A stretch of 19,728 nt of DNA from Escherichia coli (GCF_003334255.1 NZ_QOWU01000070.1), one strand, 5' to 3'; counted from the stretch's first letter, positions 545-13,129 are shown. The notes: a model not told the origin generated them from the letters alone. A program made the numbers and translations.

Positions 545-3256
545 CTACATTCCAGGTGATGGTGGCGTCCACTCATTATCCTGAACTGGAGTATAAGATG
601 TGTCATTCCCCCCGGATATGCTTTTCTGTTGCCTGATATATTCGTGGTAGTACTGTTCACTACGCTGACGATGTAAATCCACATCCGGGCGGCTGATTAC
701 AAAGTGTCCATTTCCGGTTATTCCAGCTGCATTATGCCAGGCCACCATTTCCGCAAATACATCATTAAACTGTTGATATGAGCCTTCCGGTTCAAAACCC
801 ATTCCAGGCTCACGATCAAACAATACAGGAGCAATCAGATTCAGCTTATCCACCAGTTCATTTCTGTCCTGATGATGGTAGAACACCACACGGTCCCCAT
901 AATCCACACAGACTAACTCGCCATTCCTCCGATCACGAAAACGCACACTGCCATCTTTCTGCAGACGGGCTTCGAGAACGCCAGTGTCTTCATAAAGTGG
1001 AGTTCCTCCCGGTTCACAGATAATCACGCAGCGGTCGGCATTCGTTGTTCGTCGCTTGTCTTTGCGACGATCACGATAATCCCAGCCACGTAACTGTGAT
1101 ACTGCAGCTCTGTCTCCCTGTACCGCCTGTTGCTCCACCCACTGCCGGTAGGACAAAGGATACCACTTACCCTCCGCAATCAGTGACAACCGCTCTTCCT
1201 TCACACTCTCCTTCAGCCTGATCAGCGCCTGCATACGCTGCACTTCCGCAATATGGTAATGCAGCTTACGCAATTGTGGATCCCGGAACTGCACGCGGAT
1301 ATACGCCTTGCGCCGACGGCAGGCAGCATGAATTTCCCGTAACCGTTCTCCGTAACGTAAGTCGGGTTTACGCCAGTGCTCCTTCCATGCAAGATAACGC
1401 GCGCGCAAATCTTCCCGCGCAGCTGCACGGGCTTCACGGCGTTCACGACGCAGTACAGGATCGCGCCGGAAGCCGGGCTCCACTTCATCGCTGGCAGCAA
1501 GTTCCGGATTGTAGCGACATTCAGGCTTCACCCGTTCAAATATATCTGCACCTGCGATCTCAAATGGCCCTGCCTGCGGCTCAGCCCTGGATAATGTCAA
1601 ATCCGGGTGGATACTGCTGGCCTTCACTGGTGTCAGCTCATGATTAAACGCATCCACAATCACAAGACCATGATGCTGTTTCTGCAACATAAGCCCTTTA
1701 CGCGCAAACATCTCATGGCACGCCTGCCAGCTGAAATTCCCGCCCGCGATCATATCTTCAATCAACGACTCACACTGAACAGTCGTGTACCCCCACAGAC
1801 TTTCCTTATCAGAAAACAGTTCGCGCTTTATTGCTCCCTGTGGACCTGTCCCCATCCGCATACGATACCATTCGTAATCACTGACAGCCCGGGTACCGGT
1901 ACTGTGCCCCCGGAATCGTTCTCCGGGGACGACCTGGGTAAAAATATCCTTCGGTACAGGCTGCCATCCGCCTTCCTGATCCTGCATGTAATCCAGCGTC
2001 ATTAACGGCCACACACTGTCTGCACGTACTGGTGTCTGTTGTTTATCAAATCCATCATGCAGTACCAGATGCCCGTGCTGGATCCCCATCCATAATCCAG
2101 CCTTTGCCAGAGTTCTGTGCACATCCAGGCAACTTTCCAGCTCACCATTTCTCGCCATTTCCGGTAAGCGTTCGGCAAAATGACGGCAGGCGTACTGTTT
2201 CAGACTCTCCGTTTCTGCCACTTTTTCCGGCCGGATATCAACGTTTATCGCTTCCGGATCATAACGACCGGGTGTCCCCACCTGACTGAAAATATCTGTC
2301 GGTACAGGCTGATATTCTCCCAGTTTCCGCCCCAGTCTTTCAGCCGTCCATGACGGGCCGAACGAACTGAGCACAACACCTTCCCGCGATCTGTCCCAGC
2401 CATCCTTCACCACCAGTTCTCCCTCCTGCATCGTGATATACAGACCATCACGGGCCAGCCGTTTATGCAAAGACAACCAGTCCTGGGCGGGTTCTTCACG
2501 CAGCCCGGCAATCGACATCTGCGCAATATATTCCCTGAAGGTCTGCTTTTTCCCGCGTCGCCAGGCATTACGGCGCTCACGTACCAGCGCTGTTTTACGC
2601 ACAATACGGTTGCCCGGTGCATGCACAAAACACCCGTTATCCGGTGCAAATCCGTGCTTAAGTTCAAGTTCACGGCATGCACGACTGAGTTTTTCCTTGC
2701 TCCACGGAAGGCAATTGATATAGCCGGTTTCAGGATGAACACGATTCACTGCAACATGTACATGCAGGTTATCGGTGTCTGTATGAACGGCAGCTACATA
2801 CTGATGTTTTGAAAGTTCAAGGGATTTCAGTGTGTGACGTACGCAGTCAAAAAGCTGCTCAGGACGCGGGCTTTCATGCGCAGGCCAGGAAAGAATGTAG
2901 TGAAAAACAGGGTCTGTATCATCTTTGGAAAAATGAGCAAGGTCTGCTGCTTTCTGCATTTCTTCAGCCGCAGATTCAAGAGACAAACAGTTATGAAAGC
3001 AGGTCACACCATAGAAATTCACCCACTGACTGCCGTCTTCCATTACATCAATCAGGGATACAAATTTTTCGTTACGCAGGCGTGTGGCATAGTCAACAAG
3101 CCGTCTGAAGCGGTTACGGTGCGGGACCTCACCTTTCATTTCCGGGTCTGGTTTGAGTTCATCATCCTGCACATCATCCCGCACAGACGTGTACGCAATC
3201 AGGTCTTCAAAGGAAGACCTTCCGTCACGTCTTTTGGGCGGAATGATAGCATTCAT
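545..3256 (-). CDS. nikB: MOBP-family conjugative relaxase (NikB-like), 903 aa
   Basis: Relaxase histidine motif HTDTDNLHVHVAVNRVHPETG (HxDxxxxHxH type). Size and N-terminus (MNAIIPPKRRDGRSSFEDL) fit my memory of IncI1 R64 NikB (~900 aa). Lies directly downstream of a nikA-like gene and oriT. Confidence 0.88.
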   Translation of the reverse strand: MNAIIPPKRRDGRSSFEDLIAYTSVRDDVQDDELKPDPEMKGEVPHRNRFRRLVDYATRLRNEKFVSLIDVMEDGSQWVNFYGVTCFHNCLSLESAAEEMQKAADLAHFSKDDTDPVFHYILSWPAHESPRPEQLFDCVRHTLKSLELSKHQYVAAVHTDTDNLHVHVAVNRVHPETGYINCLPWSKEKLSRACRELELKHGFAPDNGCFVHAPGNRIVRKTALVRERRNAWRRGKKQTFREYIAQMSIAGLREEPAQDWLSLHKRLARDGLYITMQEGELVVKDGWDRSREGVVLSSFGPSWTAERLGRKLGEYQPVPTDIFSQVGTPGRYDPEAINVDIRPEKVAETESLKQYACRHFAERLPEMARNGELESCLDVHRTLAKAGLWMGIQHGHLVLHDGFDKQQTPVRADSVWPLMTLDYMQDQEGGWQPVPKDIFTQVVPGERFRGHSTGTRAVSDYEWYRMRMGTGPQGAIKRELFSDKESLWGYTTVQCESLIEDMIAGGNFSWQACHEMFARKGLMLQKQHHGLVIVDAFNHELTPVKASSIHPDLTLSRAEPQAGPFEIAGADIFERVKPECRYNPELAASDEVEPGFRRDPVLRRERREARAAAREDLRARYLAWKEHWRKPDLRYGERLREIHAACRRRKAYIRVQFRDPQLRKLHYHIAEVQRMQALIRLKESVKEERLSLIAEGKWYPLSYRQWVEQQAVQGDRAAVSQLRGWDYRDRRKDKRRTTNADRCVIICEPGGTPLYEDTGVLEARLQKDGSVRFRDRRNGELVCVDYGDRVVFYHHQDRNELVDKLNLIAPVLFDREPGMGFEPEGSYQQFNDVFAEMVAWHNAAGITGNGHFVISRPDVDLHRQRSEQYYHEYIRQQKSISGGNDTSYTPVQDNEWTPPSPGM

Positions 3257-3267
3257 CAGCGACTGTC

Positions 3268-3600
3268 TCAGCGTCCCATTAAGTCTCTTCGCAGAGTGTT
3301 TGCAAGTTCTGTAATGGCAACGAGGACCTCTGCATACTCTTTATCTCCCGTGCGTTTTCCTTCCACAAACAGATGCTTCTGCAGGTGACCAAGACGCATC
3401 AACTCTTTCAAAAAATCTTCATCAATGCGGGCATTTATCTGTTTTCCCAGCACAGTTTTTCTTATCAGAGTTGAAACTGTCAGTCCGTTTTTTTCTGCCT
3501 TTTCTTTAACAATCTCAGCCTCTTCTGGTGAAAAACGAACAGCAATGAGGACATTCTTTTGCCGTTTCTCACTGCCATTTCGGTTTTTCTTCTCACTCAT
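3268..3600 (-). CDS. nikA: Relaxosome accessory protein NikA (ribbon-helix-helix oriT-binding), 110 aa
   Basis: 110-aa product starting MSEKKNRNGSEKRQ with SD AAGGAG 6 nt upstream of the ATG at 3598-3600; the longer 139-aa ORF in the track would overlap the oriT repeat. Small basic protein immediately upstream of the relaxase, the R64 nikA-nikB arrangement. Confidence 0.85.
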   Translation of the reverse strand: MSEKKNRNGSEKRQKNVLIAVRFSPEEAEIVKEKAEKNGLTVSTLIRKTVLGKQINARIDEDFLKELMRLGHLQKHLFVEGKRTGDKEYAEVLVAITELANTLRRDLMGR

Positions 3601-3641: not shown

Positions 3642-3700
3642 GGTGGTAATCGTATAGCCGTGCGTGCGCGGTTATACGATTACACATCCTGTCCCGTTTT
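3642..3700 (+). other. oriT: oriT: inverted repeat (arms 3646-3656 / 3673-3683) followed by nick-core-like ACATCCTG TCCCG
   Basis: 11-bp inverted repeat GTAATCGTATA / TATACGATTAC, then 8 bp later ATCCTG (3686-3691) resembling the MOBP nic core (RP4 ATCCTG|C); sits between nikA and the leading region. Nick position 3691|3692 is inferred by analogy only. Confidence 0.6.
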
Positions 3701-3832
3701 TCAGGCCATTATAGCCTGTTATTTTTGTGCATCATAGTCTTATGCAGACGGCAGAGGCAGGGCGCAGCCCTGCCAGGAGGCAGTTTTTGGTGATAAAATC
3801 AGGCTTCAACATGAAACGGAGAGAAAGTGCCA

Positions 3833-4168
3833 ATGGCTTCTAAAAAATTTTACTCAGATGATGACATCCAGCTGGCAAAAGCTGCTTTATCGGAATTGCC
3901 GGACCTCACCGCTCAACGGAAAACATTGCGTGATTTTCTTGATGCCATTCGTGATGACATCATTGTCCTGGTAAGGACAAAGGGTTATACACTGACAGAT
4001 GTTCGTGACACGCTCAAAAATGCAGGGTATGAAGTAGGAGAGAAAGCACTTCGTGACATTATTCGGGAAGCAGAATCGAAAAAACCATCCCGCCGTTCTT
4101 CCTCTAAAACAGCACCTAAAAAGACAGATTCAGGCAGGAAAGATGGCATCGATATGAACAACAATTGA
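3833..4168 (+). CDS. Hypothetical small basic protein (possible DNA-binding), 111 aa
   Basis: ORF with ATG at 3833 preceded by GGAGAGAAA; C-terminal lysine/arginine/serine-rich tail; stop directly followed by the perfect palindrome GATGTGAC ga GTCACATC (4167-4185). Function not recognised. Confidence 0.6.
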   Translation: MASKKFYSDDDIQLAKAALSELPDLTAQRKTLRDFLDAIRDDIIVLVRTKGYTLTDVRDTLKNAGYEVGEKALRDIIREAESKKPSRRSSSKTAPKKTDSGRKDGIDMNNN

Positions 4169-4253: not shown

Positions 4254-5102
4254 TCAGACTCGTGGCGGCAATGCACCAGGATAATGACGTGCAATAATAT
4301 CATTCAGTTTTTCAACAAGGTCAGGACACTTAAAGACAATATGTACGGTCCCTTTCTGGTAGCCACGCACCGTAAAATATTCCCCTTCAAACAACTCACC
4401 GATATTGTCGCCGTTCCCGAGATATTCACCATACTGCGCCCCGATGCTGTTCCTGAAGTCAGGAACGTTGCGTCCCTCCAGCAGATAAAACGGACGTACC
4501 AGGTCATCCAGTGCCTCCCGTCCGCTGCAGTCCAGCGTCACACGCCCGTTACTCCAGCGGTACAGCAGGTTTTCAATAATGATTTTCTTGCCCAGACGGC
4601 AGGGATTATTGGTTCTGTAATCCCATGACAATTTCCGGTAGACATCAATCAGTCCCTGTTCAAATGTCTGCATCTTGCTGGCATTCAGATGGCGAAAAGT
4701 TGCCAGTACATTGTCCAGGGTGATTTCAGGACAGGTGTCGCTCATCAGCTGGCTGTTCCACTCATCACGCTGGCATGAACTCATGAAGGTGTACATCCCC
4801 GTATCCGCCATCAGGCGGTCCCAGATTTTACGGTCGGCAAGACGGGTGATATTCTTTTTTGCTTCTTCCGGTTTATCCATGCATCGAACGGAGTCAGTCA
4901 CGCAGTCTTCAAACCCGTAGAGAAAAATGTCACCAGAAGCATCGAGCAGAATCCTGCGTGCTGTCGCCAGGCATTCCATCGCCTGCATGAACAGTGCAAT
5001 ACCTTCGTTACGCTGCGCGATAATGCGGTCGATGGCCACAGACGGAATAATATCTGTCGTGCCGGCAGTATTCAGGTCAGCAGTGGGTAAAGTCTGATTC
5101 AT
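4254..5102 (-). CDS. Hypothetical protein, first gene of the leading region (possibly DUF4942-like), 282 aa
   Basis: Long ORF; ATG at 5100-5102 with SD GAGGAG 8 nt upstream (the track start is a GTG one codon earlier). No methyltransferase, HExxH or nuclease motif seen by eye. The family assignment is from memory and weak. Confidence 0.75.
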   Translation of the reverse strand: MNQTLPTADLNTAGTTDIIPSVAIDRIIAQRNEGIALFMQAMECLATARRILLDASGDIFLYGFEDCVTDSVRCMDKPEEAKKNITRLADRKIWDRLMADTGMYTFMSSCQRDEWNSQLMSDTCPEITLDNVLATFRHLNASKMQTFEQGLIDVYRKLSWDYRTNNPCRLGKKIIIENLLYRWSNGRVTLDCSGREALDDLVRPFYLLEGRNVPDFRNSIGAQYGEYLGNGDNIGELFEGEYFTVRGYQKGTVHIVFKCPDLVEKLNDIIARHYPGALPPRV

Positions 5103-5152
5103 CACATTGTCTCCTCATCGTCACGACTGCCGGGTCAGCCAGGTCATTTCCC

Positions 5153-5463
5153 GGAGGAGCGAAGCTCCTTCTGCCGTCCGGGTCTTCGGGGATTTCCCCG
5201 CAGTGGACCTTTCCGACGGGGGACGCTCACCACGTCACGGGGCAGTTGTCCGGGGGCAGACGCAAAAGTTTTTGACGCCTGCGGCAAAAAGTTTTGTGGC
5301 TGGTACATCTCTCCCCTGGACGACTGAAACGGGATGTGGTCGTGTATGTACCCCCGGAAAGTCCGTCTGCGGAGAACAGGCCGCAGTGCGGCGGCAGACA
5401 GGCAGAGACAGCTGCGCCATCAGGCGCAGTGGCATTACACACCGTCAGGTGTGCAGGGAGCGC
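5153..5463 (+). promoter_or_regulatory. Structured GC-rich element resembling a single-stranded-DNA promoter (Frpo/ssi type), copy 1
   Basis: No credible coding despite many overlapping ORFs; dense hairpins (GGAGC gaa GCTCC, CGGGGAttTCCCCG, CTGCGCC atca GGCGCAG, CACACC gtca GGTGTG); contains TTGACG inside a hairpin; paralogous to 8317-8626. Confidence 0.6.
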
Positions 5464-5578
5464 CGCATCCGGCGCGACTGAAGAAAAACGACGGCACAAC
5501 AATGGCATGTGGTGGTCACTGGCACACCACTCCCGCACAGGTGAAAACAGAGAAAACCGCACGACATCTGCAATTAAA

Positions 5579-5667
5579 AAAAGTGAAATTTCTTCACTTT
5601 TTCACACTTATTTTTCGCGCTGATTTGGTGATTATGGTGATAAAATAAAGTGAAGTTTTTTCACTTT
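5579..5667 (+). promoter_or_regulatory. Twin operator-like palindromes and promoter upstream of the HTH gene
   Basis: Two copies of AAAGTGAA-N5/6-TTCACTTT (5579-5600 and 5647-5667) flanking an AT-rich -10-like stretch, ending 15 bp before the ATG at 5682. Confidence 0.55.
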
Positions 5668-5681
5668 TTCAAAGGTGTTTT

Positions 5682-5933
5682 ATGACCGGCTGGGAACTGC
5701 GAATCTGGCGAAAAAGCATGCTCTGGTCACGCGAAAAAGCGGCCAGAGAATTTGGCGTGACGCAGAGAACATGGCACGCCTGGGAAAATGCGGAACAGGT
5801 GGATGTCACCGTCTGGAGGACCACCCAGGCACTTTCAGTCCGTGACCTGCTGCCTCACATGCAGGGGATGCGTAAGGCAGATATCATCAGGCGACTGGAA
5901 AATGAACTGGGGGAAACGGCAGAGGATGTGTGA
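5682..5933 (+). CDS. Small helix-turn-helix (XRE-like) DNA-binding protein, 83 aa
   Basis: ATG with AAAGGTG SD; N-terminal segment ELRIWRKSMLWSREKAAREFGVTQRTWHAWEN fits an XRE-type HTH; preceded by the twin palindromes. Confidence 0.65.
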   Translation: MTGWELRIWRKSMLWSREKAAREFGVTQRTWHAWENAEQVDVTVWRTTQALSVRDLLPHMQGMRKADIIRRLENELGETAEDV

Positions 5934-5963
5934 GCGTGATTCACAGCCTGGCTGAATGCCAGG

Positions 5964-6122
5964 CTACTGCTCATCAGGAAACAGCTTTTTCAGTTCTTCA
6001 CCGGAAAGTCCCGTGACCTCCTGAATCCGTTCCGGCGGCCAGCCCATATTCCAAAGCCGGCAGGCTATTTCCCGCGCCACTTCAAGTGCGCCTTTTTGAA
6101 TAAGACGTTCTGCAATCGTCAT
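5964..6122 (-). CDS. Free-standing RpnS-like small protein (paralog of the Rpn C-terminal domain), 52 aa
   Basis: MTIAERLIQKGALEVAREIACRLWNMGWPPERIQEVTGLSGEELKKLF parallels the C-terminal tail of the adjacent Rpn protein; own ATG at 6120-6122 with SD CAGGAG; separated from rpn by a terminator hairpin. Confidence 0.6.
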   Translation of the reverse strand: MTIAERLIQKGALEVAREIACRLWNMGWPPERIQEVTGLSGEELKKLFPDEQ

Positions 6123-6146
6123 GCTGTTTGCTCTGCTCCTGCTGAC

Positions 6147-6172
6147 AAAAAAGCCCGGGATTTTGCCGGGCT
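6147..6172 (-). terminator. Rho-independent terminator immediately after the rpn stop codon
   Basis: Minus strand: stem AGCCCGG / CCGGGCT (6152-6172) followed by TTTTT (6147-6151). Confidence 0.6.
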
Positions 6173-6184
6173 TTGTGGTTCTCA

Positions 6185-7147
6185 TCAGTAAGTGATTTTC
6201 TTCAGTTCGTCATCGGAAAGTCCGGTAGCCTGCTTAATCTGCTCCGGCGTCATCCCCATTTTCTGAAGCTGGCACGCAATAGCCAGGGCTTTTTCAAGCG
6301 CTCCTTCCATGCGTCCTTCCATGCGTCCTTCCATGCGTCCTTCCATCCTGCCTTCCTGGCGACCTTTTTGCTCAAGACGTTCTGCGATAGTCATCAGTTT
6401 ATCCTCATGCTGCGGCAGACGCTCAGCCAGCGCCCGCATAAATTCCGGTGATACAGAGTCCCCTGCGTTAACGATGTAATGAATCAGAACACGCACCTGC
6501 TCGTCTGAAATTTCCACCATGACCTGCGGGAGTTTGTCCAGCAGCTCCATCATGTCACGATGGCGGATATGCTTCATCAGCAGCGTCAGTGCGGCCATCC
6601 GGCGATGGTTCATGATTTCATTGTCATCAACGACAGTGATATCAACCAGCGGAAACGGCTTTGTGTATATTTTAGCCGCAAGTGCCGGATTCTCAAAACA
6701 GTCCAGCCAGTTCATGCTGTACGGGTACGGGCTGCGCTCACCGTGATAGAACAGCACCGGAATCACCAGTGGCAACGTTTTGTGCTGCTCCAGATGTCTC
6801 TGCATCGCCGCCACACTGTAGCGTAACATGCGAAAAGGCATGTACAGATTTTCTGTGCTCTGGTGCTCGATGAGCGTATAAACATAGCCGTCTTCACCCC
6901 CGGTGGTTTTCACGCTCCAGAGGATATCGCTGGCGTACTGATGCAGGTCCGGCTCTACAAAGGTGGCGGGTTCCAGCTTCAGCGTGGACAGGTCGCACAA
7001 CTGCCGGTACTCCGCCGGAAGATGCAGTTCCAGAAAATCTCTGGCGACGTCGGGATTCGCCAGGAACGACCGGAACGCGGCATCATGCGGCGTGGGCGTT
7101 GTGGTGGTTTTCTTCTTACTCACTTTCCCTCCATGAGTTATTATCAC
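6185..7147 (-). CDS. Rpn-family (YhgA-like, PD-(D/E)XK) recombination-promoting nuclease with internal RpnS-like start
   Basis: N-terminus TPHDAAFRSFLANPDVARDFLELHLPAEYRQLCDLSTLKLE and the core ASDILWSV ... YVYTLIEHQS closely parallel E. coli RpnA as I recall it. C-terminal repeat linker and tail are present; an internal ATG at 6392-6394 with SD GAGGA would give a 69-aa C-terminal product. True start may be the GTG at 7121-7123 (SD GGAGGG). Confidence 0.8.
   Translation of the reverse strand: MIITHGGKVSKKKTTTTPTPHDAAFRSFLANPDVARDFLELHLPAEYRQLCDLSTLKLEPATFVEPDLHQYASDILWSVKTTGGEDGYVYTLIEHQSTENLYMPFRMLRYSVAAMQRHLEQHKTLPLVIPVLFYHGERSPYPYSMNWLDCFENPALAAKIYTKPFPLVDITVVDDNEIMNHRRMAALTLLMKHIRHRDMMELLDKLPQVMVEISDEQVRVLIHYIVNAGDSVSPEFMRALAERLPQHEDKLMTIAERLEQKGRQEGRMEGRMEGRMEGRMEGALEKALAIACQLQKMGMTPEQIKQATGLSDDELKKITY
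6302..6349 (-). repeat. In-frame 12-bp tandem repeat (3 perfect + 1 variant unit) encoding (EGRM)n in the Rpn linker
   Basis: Plus-strand unit TCCTTCCATGCG repeated head-to-tail; translates on the minus strand to RMEG repeats (QEGRMEGRMEGRMEGRMEG). Confidence 0.9.
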
Positions 7148-8316: not shown

Positions 8317-8626
8317 ACAGGAGCGAAGCTCCTTCTGCCGTCCACTTCTTCGGGGTTTCTCCCGCTGTGGACCTTTCCGATGGGGGCCCGTTTACCGCCT
8401 CACGGGACAGCTGTCCGGGGGCGGACGCAAAATTTTTAGCCGGGTTCATGGCTAAAAATTTTGTGGCCGGTGCATCTCACCCTGGACAGATGGAACGGGA
8501 GGGGGTTACGTCTGCCCCCCGGAAAGTCCACAGCGGGAAACAGGCCGCAGGGGTGGCGGCAGGAGGGAGGACTGCTGCGCCATCAGGCGCAGTTTCCTCA
8601 CACACCGTCAGGTGTGCAGGGAGCGC
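8317..8626 (+). promoter_or_regulatory. Structured GC-rich element resembling a single-stranded-DNA promoter (Frpo/ssi type), copy 2
   Basis: Shares blocks with copy 1 (GGAGCGAAGCTCCTTCTGCCGTCC, GTGGACCTTTCCGA, GTCCGGGGGC-GACGCAAAA, CCCGGAAAGTCC, CTGCGCCATCAGGCGCAGT, ACACACCGTCAGGTGTGCAGGGAGCGC). Contains a perfect 14-bp hairpin CAAAATTTTTAGCC / GGCTAAAAATTTTG (8428-8463). Confidence 0.6.
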
Positions 8627-9015
8627 AGGTCACGGCGCGACAGGGGCGGCGCGACCGGAACGGTCGCTGCAAGCCGGGTTTTCACGCATCGGACCGTAGC
8701 GGCAGCCCGAAACCGCGCCAGCGGGTTCGGCGGAGACTGGCGGGTGCGCCAGCAGCTGCCCGTCGGAGTCGGGCCTGACGACCGGATGCCGCCAGGCAGC
8801 CGGGAGCCGAAGTGGGCGCAATAAAAGACAGCCAGAAACGGTGACAGTGTCACGGAATATCACTCCTGTTCCCTGCATACAGCCATACACTACCTTCTGA
8901 CCGGAAAGCCGGGCCGGCAGCGCCGCAGGCGCTGCACCCCGCGTTTCCGGCAGGCGTCAGCCTGCCTGGGGTTTTCGCGCGGGCTGACAGGCGGCCTCCA
9001 CCGCCTGCCCCTGTA

Positions 9016-9207
9016 TCACCTGTTTCTGCTGCCCTGAAGGATGTAGTGACCGCCCAGGAAAACCGCCTGCTGATTCGCCACAAAATCGCAGATTTCATCA
9101 ACAATCTGCGCGGTGGTGAGCGGTTTCTGCCCCATTTCACGACGCCGCGCATTAATCACGGCCCTGTAATTACGCAGAATTTCGCGGGTTTCTGTGCTGA
9201 TATTCAT
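9016..9207 (-). CDS. Hypothetical small protein, 63 aa, translationally coupled to the upstream gene
   Basis: ATG overlaps the stop of the 9204-9626 gene (ATGA). Confidence 0.6.
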   Translation of the reverse strand: MNISTETREILRNYRAVINARRREMGQKPLTTAQIVDEICDFVANQQAVFLGGHYILQGSRNR

Positions 9208-9626
9208 GACATCGTCTCCCCGTCCAGCGCCTGTAACACAACGTCCATTGCTTCGCGTTCCTCCCTGACGAATGCGTCACCGTCGCCCCCGTTCTCACTC
9301 CCGACGGCATACAGGCGCTTCATTTCACTGCCTGCCAGCGCCATCACTTTTTCCAGCATCACCGCCGGGACTGTCACATGACGGCTGGCGCGCTTTTCTT
9401 CCATCAGTTCACGAACAACGTCGTGAACAACGCTGACATCCGCACCATGCTCAAAGGCATCGTCCAGTCGCTGCATGACGGTTTCCAGCTCATCGTCTGA
9501 CAGGTTCCAGTCCTGGGCTATGTGACGCACATCCCCACGGGTCAGCACCACGGCAAAAACGCATTCACTGTCCGGCACGTCTGTATCCAGTACATCGCGG
9601 ATGATTTCTTTAACAGTACAGTACAT
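9204..9626 (-). CDS. Acidic hypothetical protein, 140 aa (possibly DUF1380-like, a family often next to ArdB/KlcA genes)
   Basis: ATG with SD AAGGAGACG; acidic composition; family name from memory only. Confidence 0.65.
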   Translation of the reverse strand: MYCTVKEIIRDVLDTDVPDSECVFAVVLTRGDVRHIAQDWNLSDDELETVMQRLDDAFEHGADVSVVHDVVRELMEEKRASRHVTVPAVMLEKVMALAGSEMKRLYAVGSENGGDGDAFVREEREAMDVVLQALDGETMS

Positions 9627-9672: not shown

Positions 9673-10098
9673 TCAGTCAAGTGCAGCGTAAATCGCGTTG
9701 CATTCGGGGTGAAATTCGATGTGGCTCCACAACTGCGCATCGCGCATCCTGTACAGGTGTGTCAACCCTGCATCCCCGCTGTCGTGGTACAGCCACAACT
9801 GGCGGTTAATCACAAGGGAAGTCAAAATGATGCCTGCGGCATCAGCACTCACGGTACGGTCAAACCAGTTTTCACCGTTGACCAGATGAAAACGGTCGCC
9901 ATCCGGCATCATGTAACCGCCACCGTCCGGCAGGCGGATGAAGTGCCAGAATCCGCCTTCATATTCCGGCATCATTTTTTTCGCCAGCGCGTATACAGAC
10001 GCTTCGGCATACAGAAAATCCAGGCCAAACAGGTAAGGCAGAAAAGACAGACGGTCGCACTCTTCAACGTTCAGAGTGACAGGTTTCGCATACTGCAT
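9673..10098 (-). CDS. ArdB/KlcA-family antirestriction-like protein, 141 aa
   Basis: Start MQYAKPVTL with SD GGAGG 6 nt upstream (the track ORF begins earlier at 10179). Motifs FLPYLFG, EGGFWHFIRLPDGGGYMMPDGD and SADAAGIILT match my recollection of the KlcA/ArdB/YfjX family. Confidence 0.7.
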   Translation of the reverse strand: MQYAKPVTLNVEECDRLSFLPYLFGLDFLYAEASVYALAKKMMPEYEGGFWHFIRLPDGGGYMMPDGDRFHLVNGENWFDRTVSADAAGIILTSLVINRQLWLYHDSGDAGLTHLYRMRDAQLWSHIEFHPECNAIYAALD

Positions 10099-10140
10099 GG
10101 GATTTCCTCCGTTGTTCACATATTCCGCGACACCGGGCGG

Positions 10141-10364
10141 TGCCGTGCCTCCATCTTTGCCGGGCCTGCAGGGTTGCAAGGGCGCAAGGGAAGCCGCAGC
10201 CTGACGCGCACGGCTGACGGGAGTTGGAGGGTGAGACCGCGAAATCTGAGCGGGTGAACGACCGGAAAATCACGGCAGACGGGAAGGAGGGACCGGGTGA
10301 CCGCAGCGGTTCACCTTACCTTGCAACCCGCCCGCAGAAGCCCGGCTACGATGGAGGCACGGCA
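10141..10364 (+). promoter_or_regulatory. Long imperfect hairpin (about 225 bp) upstream of the klcA-like operon; possible third ssDNA promoter/ssi element
   Basis: Outer arms TGCCGTGCCTCCATC (10141-10155) and GATGGAGGCACGGCA (10350-10364) are exact reverse complements; inner arms GCCGGGC...GGTTGCAAGG / CCTTGCAACC...GCCCGGC also pair; nested palindromes CGGGTGAACGACCGG and GGTGACCGCAGCGGTTCACC. Confidence 0.5.
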
Positions 10365-10511
10365 CAGCCCGCACACGACGCTGAGGCCACATAACTGAAA
10401 ACCCACAAGGCCATGCCCCGCATGGCCGGGTAAAGCGGAGCCTGCGGCGACATCCTTTTGCTCTTTCCGGGGACCGGCTGGAAAAGGCGGAGATTTTCCC
10501 CGCCAGCGTCA

Positions 10512-10835: not shown

Positions 10836-11114
10836 CGTCTGACCGGTGGTGGTCAGCGCCGCCCGGATACGCGGGCATCTTCTGCCACTTGGTAACAGAT
10901 GCTTCGTACTGCATTGCGCACTGCATCAAGAACTGCCCTGATTTCGTCTTCGGTCAGCCATTCTCCGGCATACGGGAAAAACACCTGTGTTCCGTCTGCC
11001 GGAAGTACCGGCAGCGACTGCCACTGACTGCCGGACAGTACCAGTTCCGCCCCGGTTCCGGTCAGTTTCTGAATGGCGGAGGCCAGGAGCGGCGGCAGTA
11101 CGCCGCCGTGACGG

Positions 11115-12157: not shown

Positions 12158-13129
12158 TTACTCCTCTTTGAAAGCCGCGATAGCTTCAACCAGTGCTGTC
12201 TGTGGCGACTCCATCATCACTACTTTTTGCCCAAGATGGTGCCATGCCGTTTTTATCGAATCATAGATCAACGGGGCCCCACCACCGACAACATAAACAC
12301 GATTCACATGATGGAAATCACCGAGCTCATTGACTACTTGCTCCCCCAGACTGGCAATAGCCCCCTCAATGGTATTAAGGACCAGATCAGTTTTTGTTTC
12401 GTCATTTATAACCTGCCGAACAAAGTCCGGGTCATTACGACGTTTAATCAATTCATCTGCAACGAGGAAACTGGTATCACTGGATGCCATGCGCAATGCA
12501 CTCATTGCAGCTTTCGTAACTGAAGACACACCAATGCCAGAATTACCATGAATGGCACTTACAGAGTCAAATTGACCAACGATAACACCAACATCAAGCG
12601 TAGTGCCGCCAATATCAACTACCAGCGATTTTTCGAACTGACCAACTTTATCCATGACCAGACGAGAAAACACAGCTGGCAATGATTCAGGCATCACATC
12701 AACGTGTTCAATGGTGAAAACATCGCCTTTATTAAGACGAATCGGCCTCATTAAATTCTCAATTTTACGCTGAATGTTGAGTTCATTTTTTTGACACTCT
12801 TTCGTGTAGAACTCACTGATAGGCAAAGTCACAGTCAATGATACAGGCTGAGGCGCTAATCCACTATTCAGTAAAGCGTGATGCACAGCTAACAGGTTAA
12901 CATCCGTATATTGATACTCAATATGAGTCGTAAGAATAGATTGGTTACTAACTTCATCATACGTGTATTTTTTACCATCCAGTTCATAGTTAAATGTCTG
13001 GCGAATCCCTAACCCGTCAACCTTCCATCCATGACGAAATGAGTTTTGCGACAACGACTTACAGATTTTCCCATTGTCATTCCATGCCAACTTGATTGTT
13101 GTTGAACCATCATCGCAGTATACGTTCAT
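12158..13129 (-). CDS. stbA: Actin-like plasmid segregation ATPase (ParM/StbA family), 323 aa
   Basis: N-terminus MNVYCDDGSTTIKLAW parallels R1 ParM (MLVFIDDGSTNIKLQW), with phosphate motifs DIGGTTLD and VVGGGA; SD AAGGGG upstream of the ATG. Confidence 0.85.
   Translation of the reverse strand: MNVYCDDGSTTIKLAWNDNGKICKSLSQNSFRHGWKVDGLGIRQTFNYELDGKKYTYDEVSNQSILTTHIEYQYTDVNLLAVHHALLNSGLAPQPVSLTVTLPISEFYTKECQKNELNIQRKIENLMRPIRLNKGDVFTIEHVDVMPESLPAVFSRLVMDKVGQFEKSLVVDIGGTTLDVGVIVGQFDSVSAIHGNSGIGVSSVTKAAMSALRMASSDTSFLVADELIKRRNDPDFVRQVINDETKTDLVLNTIEGAIASLGEQVVNELGDFHHVNRVYVVGGGAPLIYDSIKTAWHHLGQKVVMMESPQTALVEAIAAFKEE

Follow-up and report, generated by a model that had tools for sequence, protein, structure and literature searches.

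A small Aca2-like HTH regulator encoded in I-complex plasmid leading regions is predicted to repress its own promoter through two palindromic operators

Plasmid leading regions are now seen as anti-defence islands that are expressed from the incoming single strand. Class 1 ssi/Frpo promoters have been described in IncI1 plasmids (PMC12672017), and ED-TA RNA-seq of pESBL identified six operons with single-stranded DNA (ssDNA) promoters, the induction of which decays over 30–60 min, with leading-gene expression lasting longer in uvrD recipients (PMC12672017). The decay was attributed by those authors to loss of the ssDNA promoter structure on double-strand conversion (PMC12672017). The end of the ssDNA programme, and the hand-over to the double-stranded (dsDNA) plasmid, has so far been explained only passively. 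A conserved repressor that can be made only after second-strand synthesis would be a candidate for an active step in this hand-over.

Several described regulators bear comparison with the locus examined here. Aca2, from Pectobacterium phage ZF40 and relatives, represses its own expression via inverted repeats that overlap promoter elements and are often two in number (PMC8633003, PMC8434428), and its residues Arg30 and Tyr34 read the half-site GTTC (PMC8633003). Cro/CI-type XRE autorepressors, which include restriction-modification C-proteins and HipB, are five-helix HTH proteins with tandem operators at a self-controlled promoter. YggA/Orf35 is encoded by the first leading-region gene of R64 and pCTX-M3, and Orf35 of pCTX-M3 represses the nikA-tra operon (PMC6112013). 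We found no study in the literature of the 83-aa HTH protein described below, or of a leading-region repressor in I-complex plasmids.

The analysed stretch of Escherichia coli DNA, 19,728 nt in full and hereafter called the window, comprises the oriT and leading region of an I-complex (IncK2/Z) plasmid. IS insertions aside, it shares 100% identity with E. coli plasmid NZ_CP060058.1 (IncK2/Z, 99.8 kb). That plasmid is typed as mobilizable only, carries many IS elements and has no annotated tra or pil genes, and its portion corresponding to the window also has no annotation for psiB or ssb, so that the backbone to which this leading region belongs is a degraded one of the I-complex. The coordinates of the features discussed are collected in Table 1.

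Table 1. Features of the oriT and leading region, with positions counted from the first letter of the window.
Feature	Position	Strand	Remarks
nikB	545-3256	-	
nikA	3268-3600	-	
oriT core	3646-3692	+	Inverted repeat GTAATCGTATAGCCG / CGGTTATACGATTAC, then nick-region motif ATCCTG|T; from sequence
YggA-like gene	3833-4168	+	oriT on one side, first leading-region module on the other
DUF4942, methyltransferase-like gene	4254-5102	-	
Intergenic region	5103-5681		579 bp
Putative ssi/Frpo-like single-strand promoter element	5155-5478	-	Repeat, ssDNA fold, conservation; class predicted
Distal operator O1	5580-5600		AAAGTGAA-ATTTC-TTCACTTT; exact palindrome, 67 bp upstream of O2
Predicted extended -10	5638-5646	+	TGaTAAAAT; from sequence, invariant in four I-complex variants
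Proximal operator O2	5647-5667		AAAGTGAA-GTTTT-TTCACTTT; exact palindrome, abuts the -10 and covers the predicted start
Shine-Dalgarno	5671-5675	+	AAAGG; 6 nt before the ATG, conserved in the I-complex alignment
HTH gene (XRE/Aca2-like regulator)	5682-5933	+	83 aa, monocistronic; ORF, translation, Pfam, AF2 model, homologues
Palindrome, 8-bp stem	5945-5965		AGCCTGGC-tgaat-GCCAGGCT; between the convergent stops at 5933 and 5964
73-aa ORF	5964-6185	-	
Rpn nuclease gene	6185-7123	-	
Small genes	Rpn-DUF1380 interval	-	
DUF1380	9204-9626	-	
ArdA	9673-10179	-	
ParM	12158-13129	-	

Inspection of the sequence placed the nick motif ATCCTG at 3686–3691 on the plus strand, and we take ATCCTG|T (3686–3692) to be the nick site on the pattern of IncI1/IncP (MOBP) oriT nick regions. 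Because this motif lies on the plus strand, we interpret the plus strand as the transferred strand (T-strand) and the DNA to the right of oriT as the leading region, which would enter first. The genes for ArdA and DUF4942, and for PsiA/PsiB in relatives, use the plus strand as template, which fits this assignment. Frpo/ssi-driven early genes have the transferred strand as their template, and the plus-strand HTH gene does not; it would be silent until the complementary strand is made, because its coding strand is the transferred strand. A preliminary description of this DNA had stated that the gene cannot be expressed from the incoming single strand, and this is supported by the strand assignment. 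The same description took it that no other gene of the leading region lies on the plus strand, which proved wrong: the YggA-like gene is also on the plus strand, and its position is kept in relatives.

The HTH gene has an ATG start, and its product, beginning MTGWELRIWRKS, is of the WP_000148285.1 type, called “YgeA” in R64-style annotation. The “YgeA” of F-plasmid papers is a different gene, and the name coincides by chance. The HTH gene is present in about 2,000 sequenced I-complex plasmids, among them the model plasmid pESBL, which encodes the identical protein WP_000148285.1 in an unchanged arrangement. Pfam matches to HTH_31 (E 1.2e-4, residues 3–40) and HTH_3 (E 0.022) confirmed the earlier reading of an 83-aa XRE-like protein. 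The AF2 model (pLDDT 89.9), with helices at residues 3–12, 17–24, 28–35, 42–60, and 65–76, is a compact all-helical DNA-binding domain, and its structural neighbours in Foldseek were all HTH_XRE proteins. NCBIfam gave no match for the regulator, PADLOC a marginal match only, and PHROGs a match to phrog_6962 alone (E 1.8e-13), a family annotated as function unknown. The protein family is small, with 79 cluster representatives at E ≤ 1e-3 among 1.84 billion. Homologues share 30–85% identity with the HTH protein, and the family consensus N-terminus reads MTGxELRLWRKG..W....AA.ELGVSLRTYK.YE. The HTH regulator is an uncharacterised member of a well-known kind of regulator.

Aca2 (PDB 7ezy, 7vjo, 7b5j) was the best solved-structure match of the family profile, with 7ezy_A at the top of the PDB search (E 2.3e-6, residues 1–52 aligned), the Aca2 structures 7vjo and 8w35 also matched (E ~0.004), and HipB next. 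Foldseek against the PDB also ranked Aca2 first, at E-values that were not significant, with C.Esp1396I and HipB among the structural matches; identity between Aca2 and the HTH protein was 28–32% in these Foldseek alignments. Both proteins have an N-terminal MTxxEL..R and a recognition helix of the form R-S/T-W/Y-x-x-W/Y-E, which reads R-S-W-Q-Y-W-E in Aca2, R-T-W-H-A-W-E in the HTH protein, and R-T-Y-K-x-Y-E in most relatives. As with Aca2, inverted repeats are found at the HTH gene's own promoter, with O2 abutting the -10 and O1 67 bp upstream, and both regulators belong to the early counter-defence region of a mobile element. The alignments between the two proteins stop near residue 52, however, with target-normalised TM-scores of 0.35–0.44. 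Whereas Aca2 has ~116–125 aa and a C-terminal α/β dimerisation domain, the 83-aa HTH protein ends in two helices and that domain is absent; whereas Aca2 is co-transcribed downstream of an acr gene, the HTH gene is monocistronic and points against its neighbours. With neither a C-terminal dimerisation domain nor a co-transcribed gene, the HTH protein thus lacks two defining features of Aca2. The half-sites also differ, being GTTC for Aca2 and GTGAA in the HTH gene operators. Aca2 binds, in addition, an RNA hairpin in its own 5′ UTR; here, the full operator hairpin is probably untranscribed, because the predicted transcription start lies inside O2. The likeness of the HTH protein to Aca2 therefore lies in the DNA-binding domain and in the predicted autoregulation.

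With Cro/CI-type autorepressors, the HTH gene shares the five-helix HTH and the tandem operators, and dimeric binding to 2-fold symmetric sites is predicted here as well. Unlike those systems, it has no co-controlled toxin, endonuclease, or lytic operon, and we identified no divergent regulated promoter at the HTH locus. The family is also set apart by its own N-terminus, MTGxELRLWR, and its own operator consensus. HipB/HigA-type antitoxins accompany a toxin gene, and no such co-directional neighbour was found here or in the family loci.

YggA/Orf35 occurs in the same plasmids and is likewise encoded on the opposite strand to the other leading genes, beside oriT, but its sequence is unrelated to that of the HTH protein and has no recognised DNA-binding motif. 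Its gene is also divergent from nikA, an obvious target, in which the HTH gene differs. A search of the window found no AAAGTGAA palindrome near the YggA-like gene. The two promoters in the window do have an exact 11-mer in common, GGTGATAAAAT, which includes the extended -10 and lies at 3789–3799 and 5636–5646, upstream of the YggA-like and HTH genes, respectively; by a simple count its sharing by chance is unlikely (~0.01 in 19.7 kb).

Upstream of the HTH gene, AAAGTGAA-N5-TTCACTTT occurs in two mismatch-free copies, 67 bp apart from start to start. The preliminary description had placed two palindrome copies ahead of the gene, which holds, with spacers of 5 or 6 nt, which does not, both spacers being 5 nt. 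O1 and O2 were the sole matches in the 19.7-kb window at ≤3 mismatches, against 0.12 expected. The 8-mer half-site was found four times (0.84 expected), each time as an arm of O1 or O2, with no further copies in the window, and the looser pattern GTGAA-N3-11-TTCAC also returned the O1 and O2 sites only. With two matches against 0.12 expected and the half-site confined to the four arms, the pair is more than a chance occurrence.

O2 begins directly after the extended -10, TGaTAAAAT, and the predicted transcription start, near 5653, falls within it; there is no good -35. A strict two-hexamer sigma-70 scan found no promoter for the HTH gene, so the predicted promoter rests on the conserved extended -10. 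Beyond the 3′ end of the gene, the palindrome between the convergent stops is not followed by a T-run on either strand, and any role as a terminator looks weak.

Conservation of these signals was examined at two scales. For close comparison, the window was aligned with an IncI1-type variant (L004) whose HTH protein is 84% identical. Identity between the two was 86% over the ssi-like element, 42% over the spacer at 5479–5575 (which includes a 33-nt indel), 82% over O1, 31% over the 32-nt interval from O1 to the -10, and 90% over the extended -10, O2, Shine-Dalgarno, and ATG. O1 and O2, the extended -10, and the ribosome-binding site are therefore islands of conservation in a spacer that has diverged between IncK and IncI1, and the 67-bp spacing of O1 and O2 is kept in L004 despite the diverged sequence between them.

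For the wider comparison, the family profile returned 28 loci in one-genome-per-species contigs, and more loci were drawn from plasmids, metagenomes, and phages. Operators were compared across ~30 homologues (30–85% identity) from Enterobacterales plasmids and one phage, with the count restricted to the 29 loci in which the HTH gene is not embedded in a co-directional operon. A GTGNN-N5-NNCAC palindrome was found close upstream of the start codon at 27 of these 29 free-standing loci, centred between -22 and -34 from the ATG at 25 and at -54/-56 at two more. Loci bearing it come from Erwinia, Yersinia, Rahnella, Buttiauxella, Citrobacter, Hafnia, Providencia, Pantoea, and a Klebsiella phage. 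A TAnnnT hexamer lies directly against the proximal palindrome at ~21 family loci, a second palindrome is present 55–67 bp upstream at 14, and the Buttiauxella loci have three copies. Spacing between operators is mostly 55–57 bp across the loci, the 67 bp of the I-complex being about one helical turn more. The family operator consensus is AAGTG(C/A)A-N5-T(G/T)CACTT, with half-sites that vary by clade: GTGAA or GTGTA in the I-complex, GTGCA in most, and GTGAC in Hafnia, Providencia, and Symbiopectobacterium. There was no clear match between recognition helix and half-site, as the relatives with His32 (L037 and L038) retain GTGCA, and Arg33 occurring with GTGAC was the only hint of covariation.

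Homologues of pOXA-48-type plasmids (~32% identity) lie inside a co-directional operon without a palindrome and are therefore uninformative on operators. In the pOXA-48-type IncL locus (L003, 6543–8556), the operon order is hypothetical, HTH, “restriction endonuclease”, hypothetical, hypothetical, and this IncL/M homologue may represent a different use of the same HTH domain.

At four loci (L010, L013, L029, and L030), sites 0.84–1.1 kb upstream of the HTH gene were considered as extra targets and rejected, as they are the displaced distal operator. A higBA-like cassette with TTCGTAC palindromes of its own sits between O1 and O2 at these loci (5157–6001 in L013), and such insertions, from Rahnella, Yersinia, and Enterobacter plasmids, account for the shift of O1. 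In L013 and L030, the cassette is a separate insertion that carries an antitoxin of its own.

In Klebsiella phage SopranoGao (L040, 2340–2719), the homologue is 44% identical over 59 aa and is encoded by a lone counter-oriented gene between the large and small terminase genes, with a 4-nt overlap with the downstream gene. Two mixed GTGAA/GTGCA palindromes flank a TATAAT at the same positions as in the plasmid loci.

A further locus, L015 (10900–11200), from one distant plasmid, has an orphan hairpin flank, a -10, and a perfect operator, AAGTGCAGTTTTTGCACTT (core 11035–11051), with no HTH ORF. This orphan operator lies between two leading-region genes, with a terminator-like hairpin ~130 nt downstream, and could mark an HTH-controlled small transcript or be the remnant of a deletion.

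The conserved palindromes at the free-standing homologues and the phylogenetic footprint point indirectly to symmetric-operator binding by the HTH protein, and they support the prediction that the palindromes behave as the HTH gene's own operators. The predicted autorepression by the HTH regulator is well supported. Our main reading, to which we give a probability of roughly 75%, is that the gene encodes a small XRE-type autorepressor that acts on two palindromes at its own promoter and needs dsDNA for its expression. A dimer of the protein would bind each of the two 21-bp palindromes, and at O2 the bound dimer would exclude RNA polymerase, because this site directly follows the extended -10 and covers the predicted start. 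O1 would serve as a second site, probably acting cooperatively or tuning the response. Against a simple form of cooperation, the O1–O2 spacing amounts to 5.3 or 6.4 helical turns, placing the sites on different sides of the helix, and so this is not an obvious geometry for cooperative looping. In a new host, the HTH gene would stay silent for as long as the plasmid remains single-stranded; after synthesis of the complementary strand, its promoter would fire without repression, and the protein would then shut the promoter down. A new host would accordingly see a pulse of expression after second-strand synthesis, followed by a low, autoregulated level. The binding, the dimer, the -10, the start site, and the burst-then-repression kinetics are all predictions of this model. 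The HTH gene could in this way report the moment at which the plasmid becomes double-stranded, though, should it have no target but itself, it would amount to a neat yet unremarkable autoregulatory cassette.

The setting of the gene is shared widely. At least 16 plasmids, in which the protein is as little as 35% identical, have the HTH gene 2–4.5 kb from nikA/mobA, on the strand of the YggA-like gene and opposite to the flanking leading-region genes, which encode DUF932, DUF5983, DUF4942, ArdA-like proteins, DUF957, and PsiA/PsiB. Many other Enterobacterales plasmids carry relatives at this position, likewise in reverse orientation. Directly upstream of the HTH promoter, and divergent from it, is the putative ssi/Frpo-like element, which would serve the leftward DUF4942 module. 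This element is repeated at 8319–8641, upstream of the Rpn module, the copies being 80–88% identical. Folded as ssDNA, the plus strand at 5106–5580 gave a long hairpin with a dG of -117 kcal/mol (z -6.6). Both copies are probably class 1 ssi/Frpo promoters of the kind reported for IncI1 plasmids (PMC12672017).

From the sequences searched, the only recognisable target of the HTH protein appears to be its own promoter, and a wider role is not indicated: no other operator copies were found in the window, in NZ_CP060058.1 (99.8 kb), or in pESBL-EA11 (88.5 kb). A weak pESBL site, AAAGGGAA-N5-TTCTCTTT at 66465, was considered as an extra operator and dismissed because it is not conserved in the window. 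As a repressor of itself alone has no evident benefit, a target is probably missing from the picture, and we weighed several places where it might lie.

One unlikely candidate is a local role in cis at the module boundary, in which the promoter and the operator-bound protein would affect the neighbouring modules only, whether by blocking or colliding with leftward Rpn read-through into the DUF4942 module and oriT, or by altering supercoiling at the adjacent hairpin by way of divergent transcription. Throughout the leading-region loci examined, the gene and the preceding operon meet tail-to-tail (with a 30-bp gap here and a 4-nt overlap in pK218-KPC, as in SopranoGao), no convincing terminator separates the convergent genes, and the 5′ side faces a GC-rich structured hairpin element. 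The orphan -10 and operator of L015 also adjoin a second copy of the same hairpin flank, in this case without the gene. This arrangement is, however, the sole basis for a local role, and any counter-oriented gene necessarily sits between operons. The end of the ssi repeat is also ~100 bp away from O1, and the start of DUF4942 ~475 bp away, and strong interference is disfavoured because autorepression would leave the promoter weak at steady state.

We regard action in trans, outside the plasmid, as no more probable than the local role. Here, the HTH protein would be made soon after establishment and would act on similar palindromes carried by the host chromosome, by a prophage, or by a co-resident plasmid, perhaps at a defence or competitor gene, and the operators at its own promoter would provide feedback only. 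The absence of another target on the plasmid invites an external one, the family occurs on many different plasmid backbones and on a few phages, in each case together with its own promoter-operator cassette, and leading regions are enriched for anti-defence functions (PMC11541004). Yet the half-site varies among clades that share the same hosts, and the PADLOC match was no better than marginal.

The preliminary description had proposed a late-expressed autoregulated repressor that closes down early leading-region expression. Its autoregulatory part is supported; its shut-down part is not, as no other operator copy was found in the sequences searched. A late-made global repressor that turns off the ssDNA-promoter-driven leading operons once the plasmid is double-stranded would suit an orientation that ties expression to dsDNA, and a gene that is always beside a structured element resembling an ssDNA promoter; Aca2, the nearest solved relative, does as much for anti-CRISPR operons. 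But operator-like sites are missing from the rest of the window, NZ_CP060058.1, and pESBL, the second ssi copy has no operator beside it, and loss of promoter structure already explains the decay in the published account, so that no repressor is needed for it (PMC12672017). Local role, external target, and global shut-off all have about equally low probabilities, and global shut-off, which has the most evidence against it, we place slightly below the other two.

A more elaborate and quite improbable idea is that the HTH cassette is a dsDNA-triggered control device for the adjacent single-strand promoter. Unrepressed divergent transcription might, on this doubtful scheme, keep the hairpin extruded, or hold the region open, immediately after the complementary strand is synthesised, and newly made repressor might, as a similarly long shot, then lock the module in its silent duplex form. 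The L015 orphan -10 and operator, the sole pointer to a second controlled site, would be another such site by the same improbable argument. If true, this would mean an active, protein-controlled step in the hand-over from ssDNA to dsDNA in conjugative plasmids.

Least probable is a two-gene system, pairing an Aca-type repressor with an anti-defence gene or a HipB/HigA-like antitoxin with a toxin such as Rpn: Aca2 and HipB are among the PDB profile matches, a potentially toxic Rpn nuclease gene is nearby, and one record annotates an ORF just upstream (given as 5347–5649 or 5334–5648, plus strand), but that ORF, tried as the partner in an acr-aca-like pair, was rejected because it overlaps both operators as well as the ssi element and shows no conservation in the IncI1 variant, there is no co-directional downstream partner, the convergent neighbours vary (Rpn-C-like, DUF957, PsiA, ArdA-like), and the C-terminal dimerisation domain of Aca2 is missing, so that the gene arrangement largely refutes it.

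Two further observations concern the neighbouring leading-region genes. The 73-aa ORF that converges on the HTH gene lies immediately downstream of the full-length Rpn gene, with 1 nt shared, and resembles an Rpn C-terminal tail (NCBIfam RpnA positions 240–288, E 1.6e-4). It is 46% identical to the C-terminus of the adjacent Rpn and looks like a free-standing Rpn C-terminal domain, recalling the small intragenic Rpn antitoxin proteins. Finally, at the ardA start and upstream of it there is a 32-nt inverted repeat (10134–10165 / 10340–10371), 91% complementary and with 174 nt between its arms, which may be the class 2 ssDNA promoter reported for ardA of pESBL.
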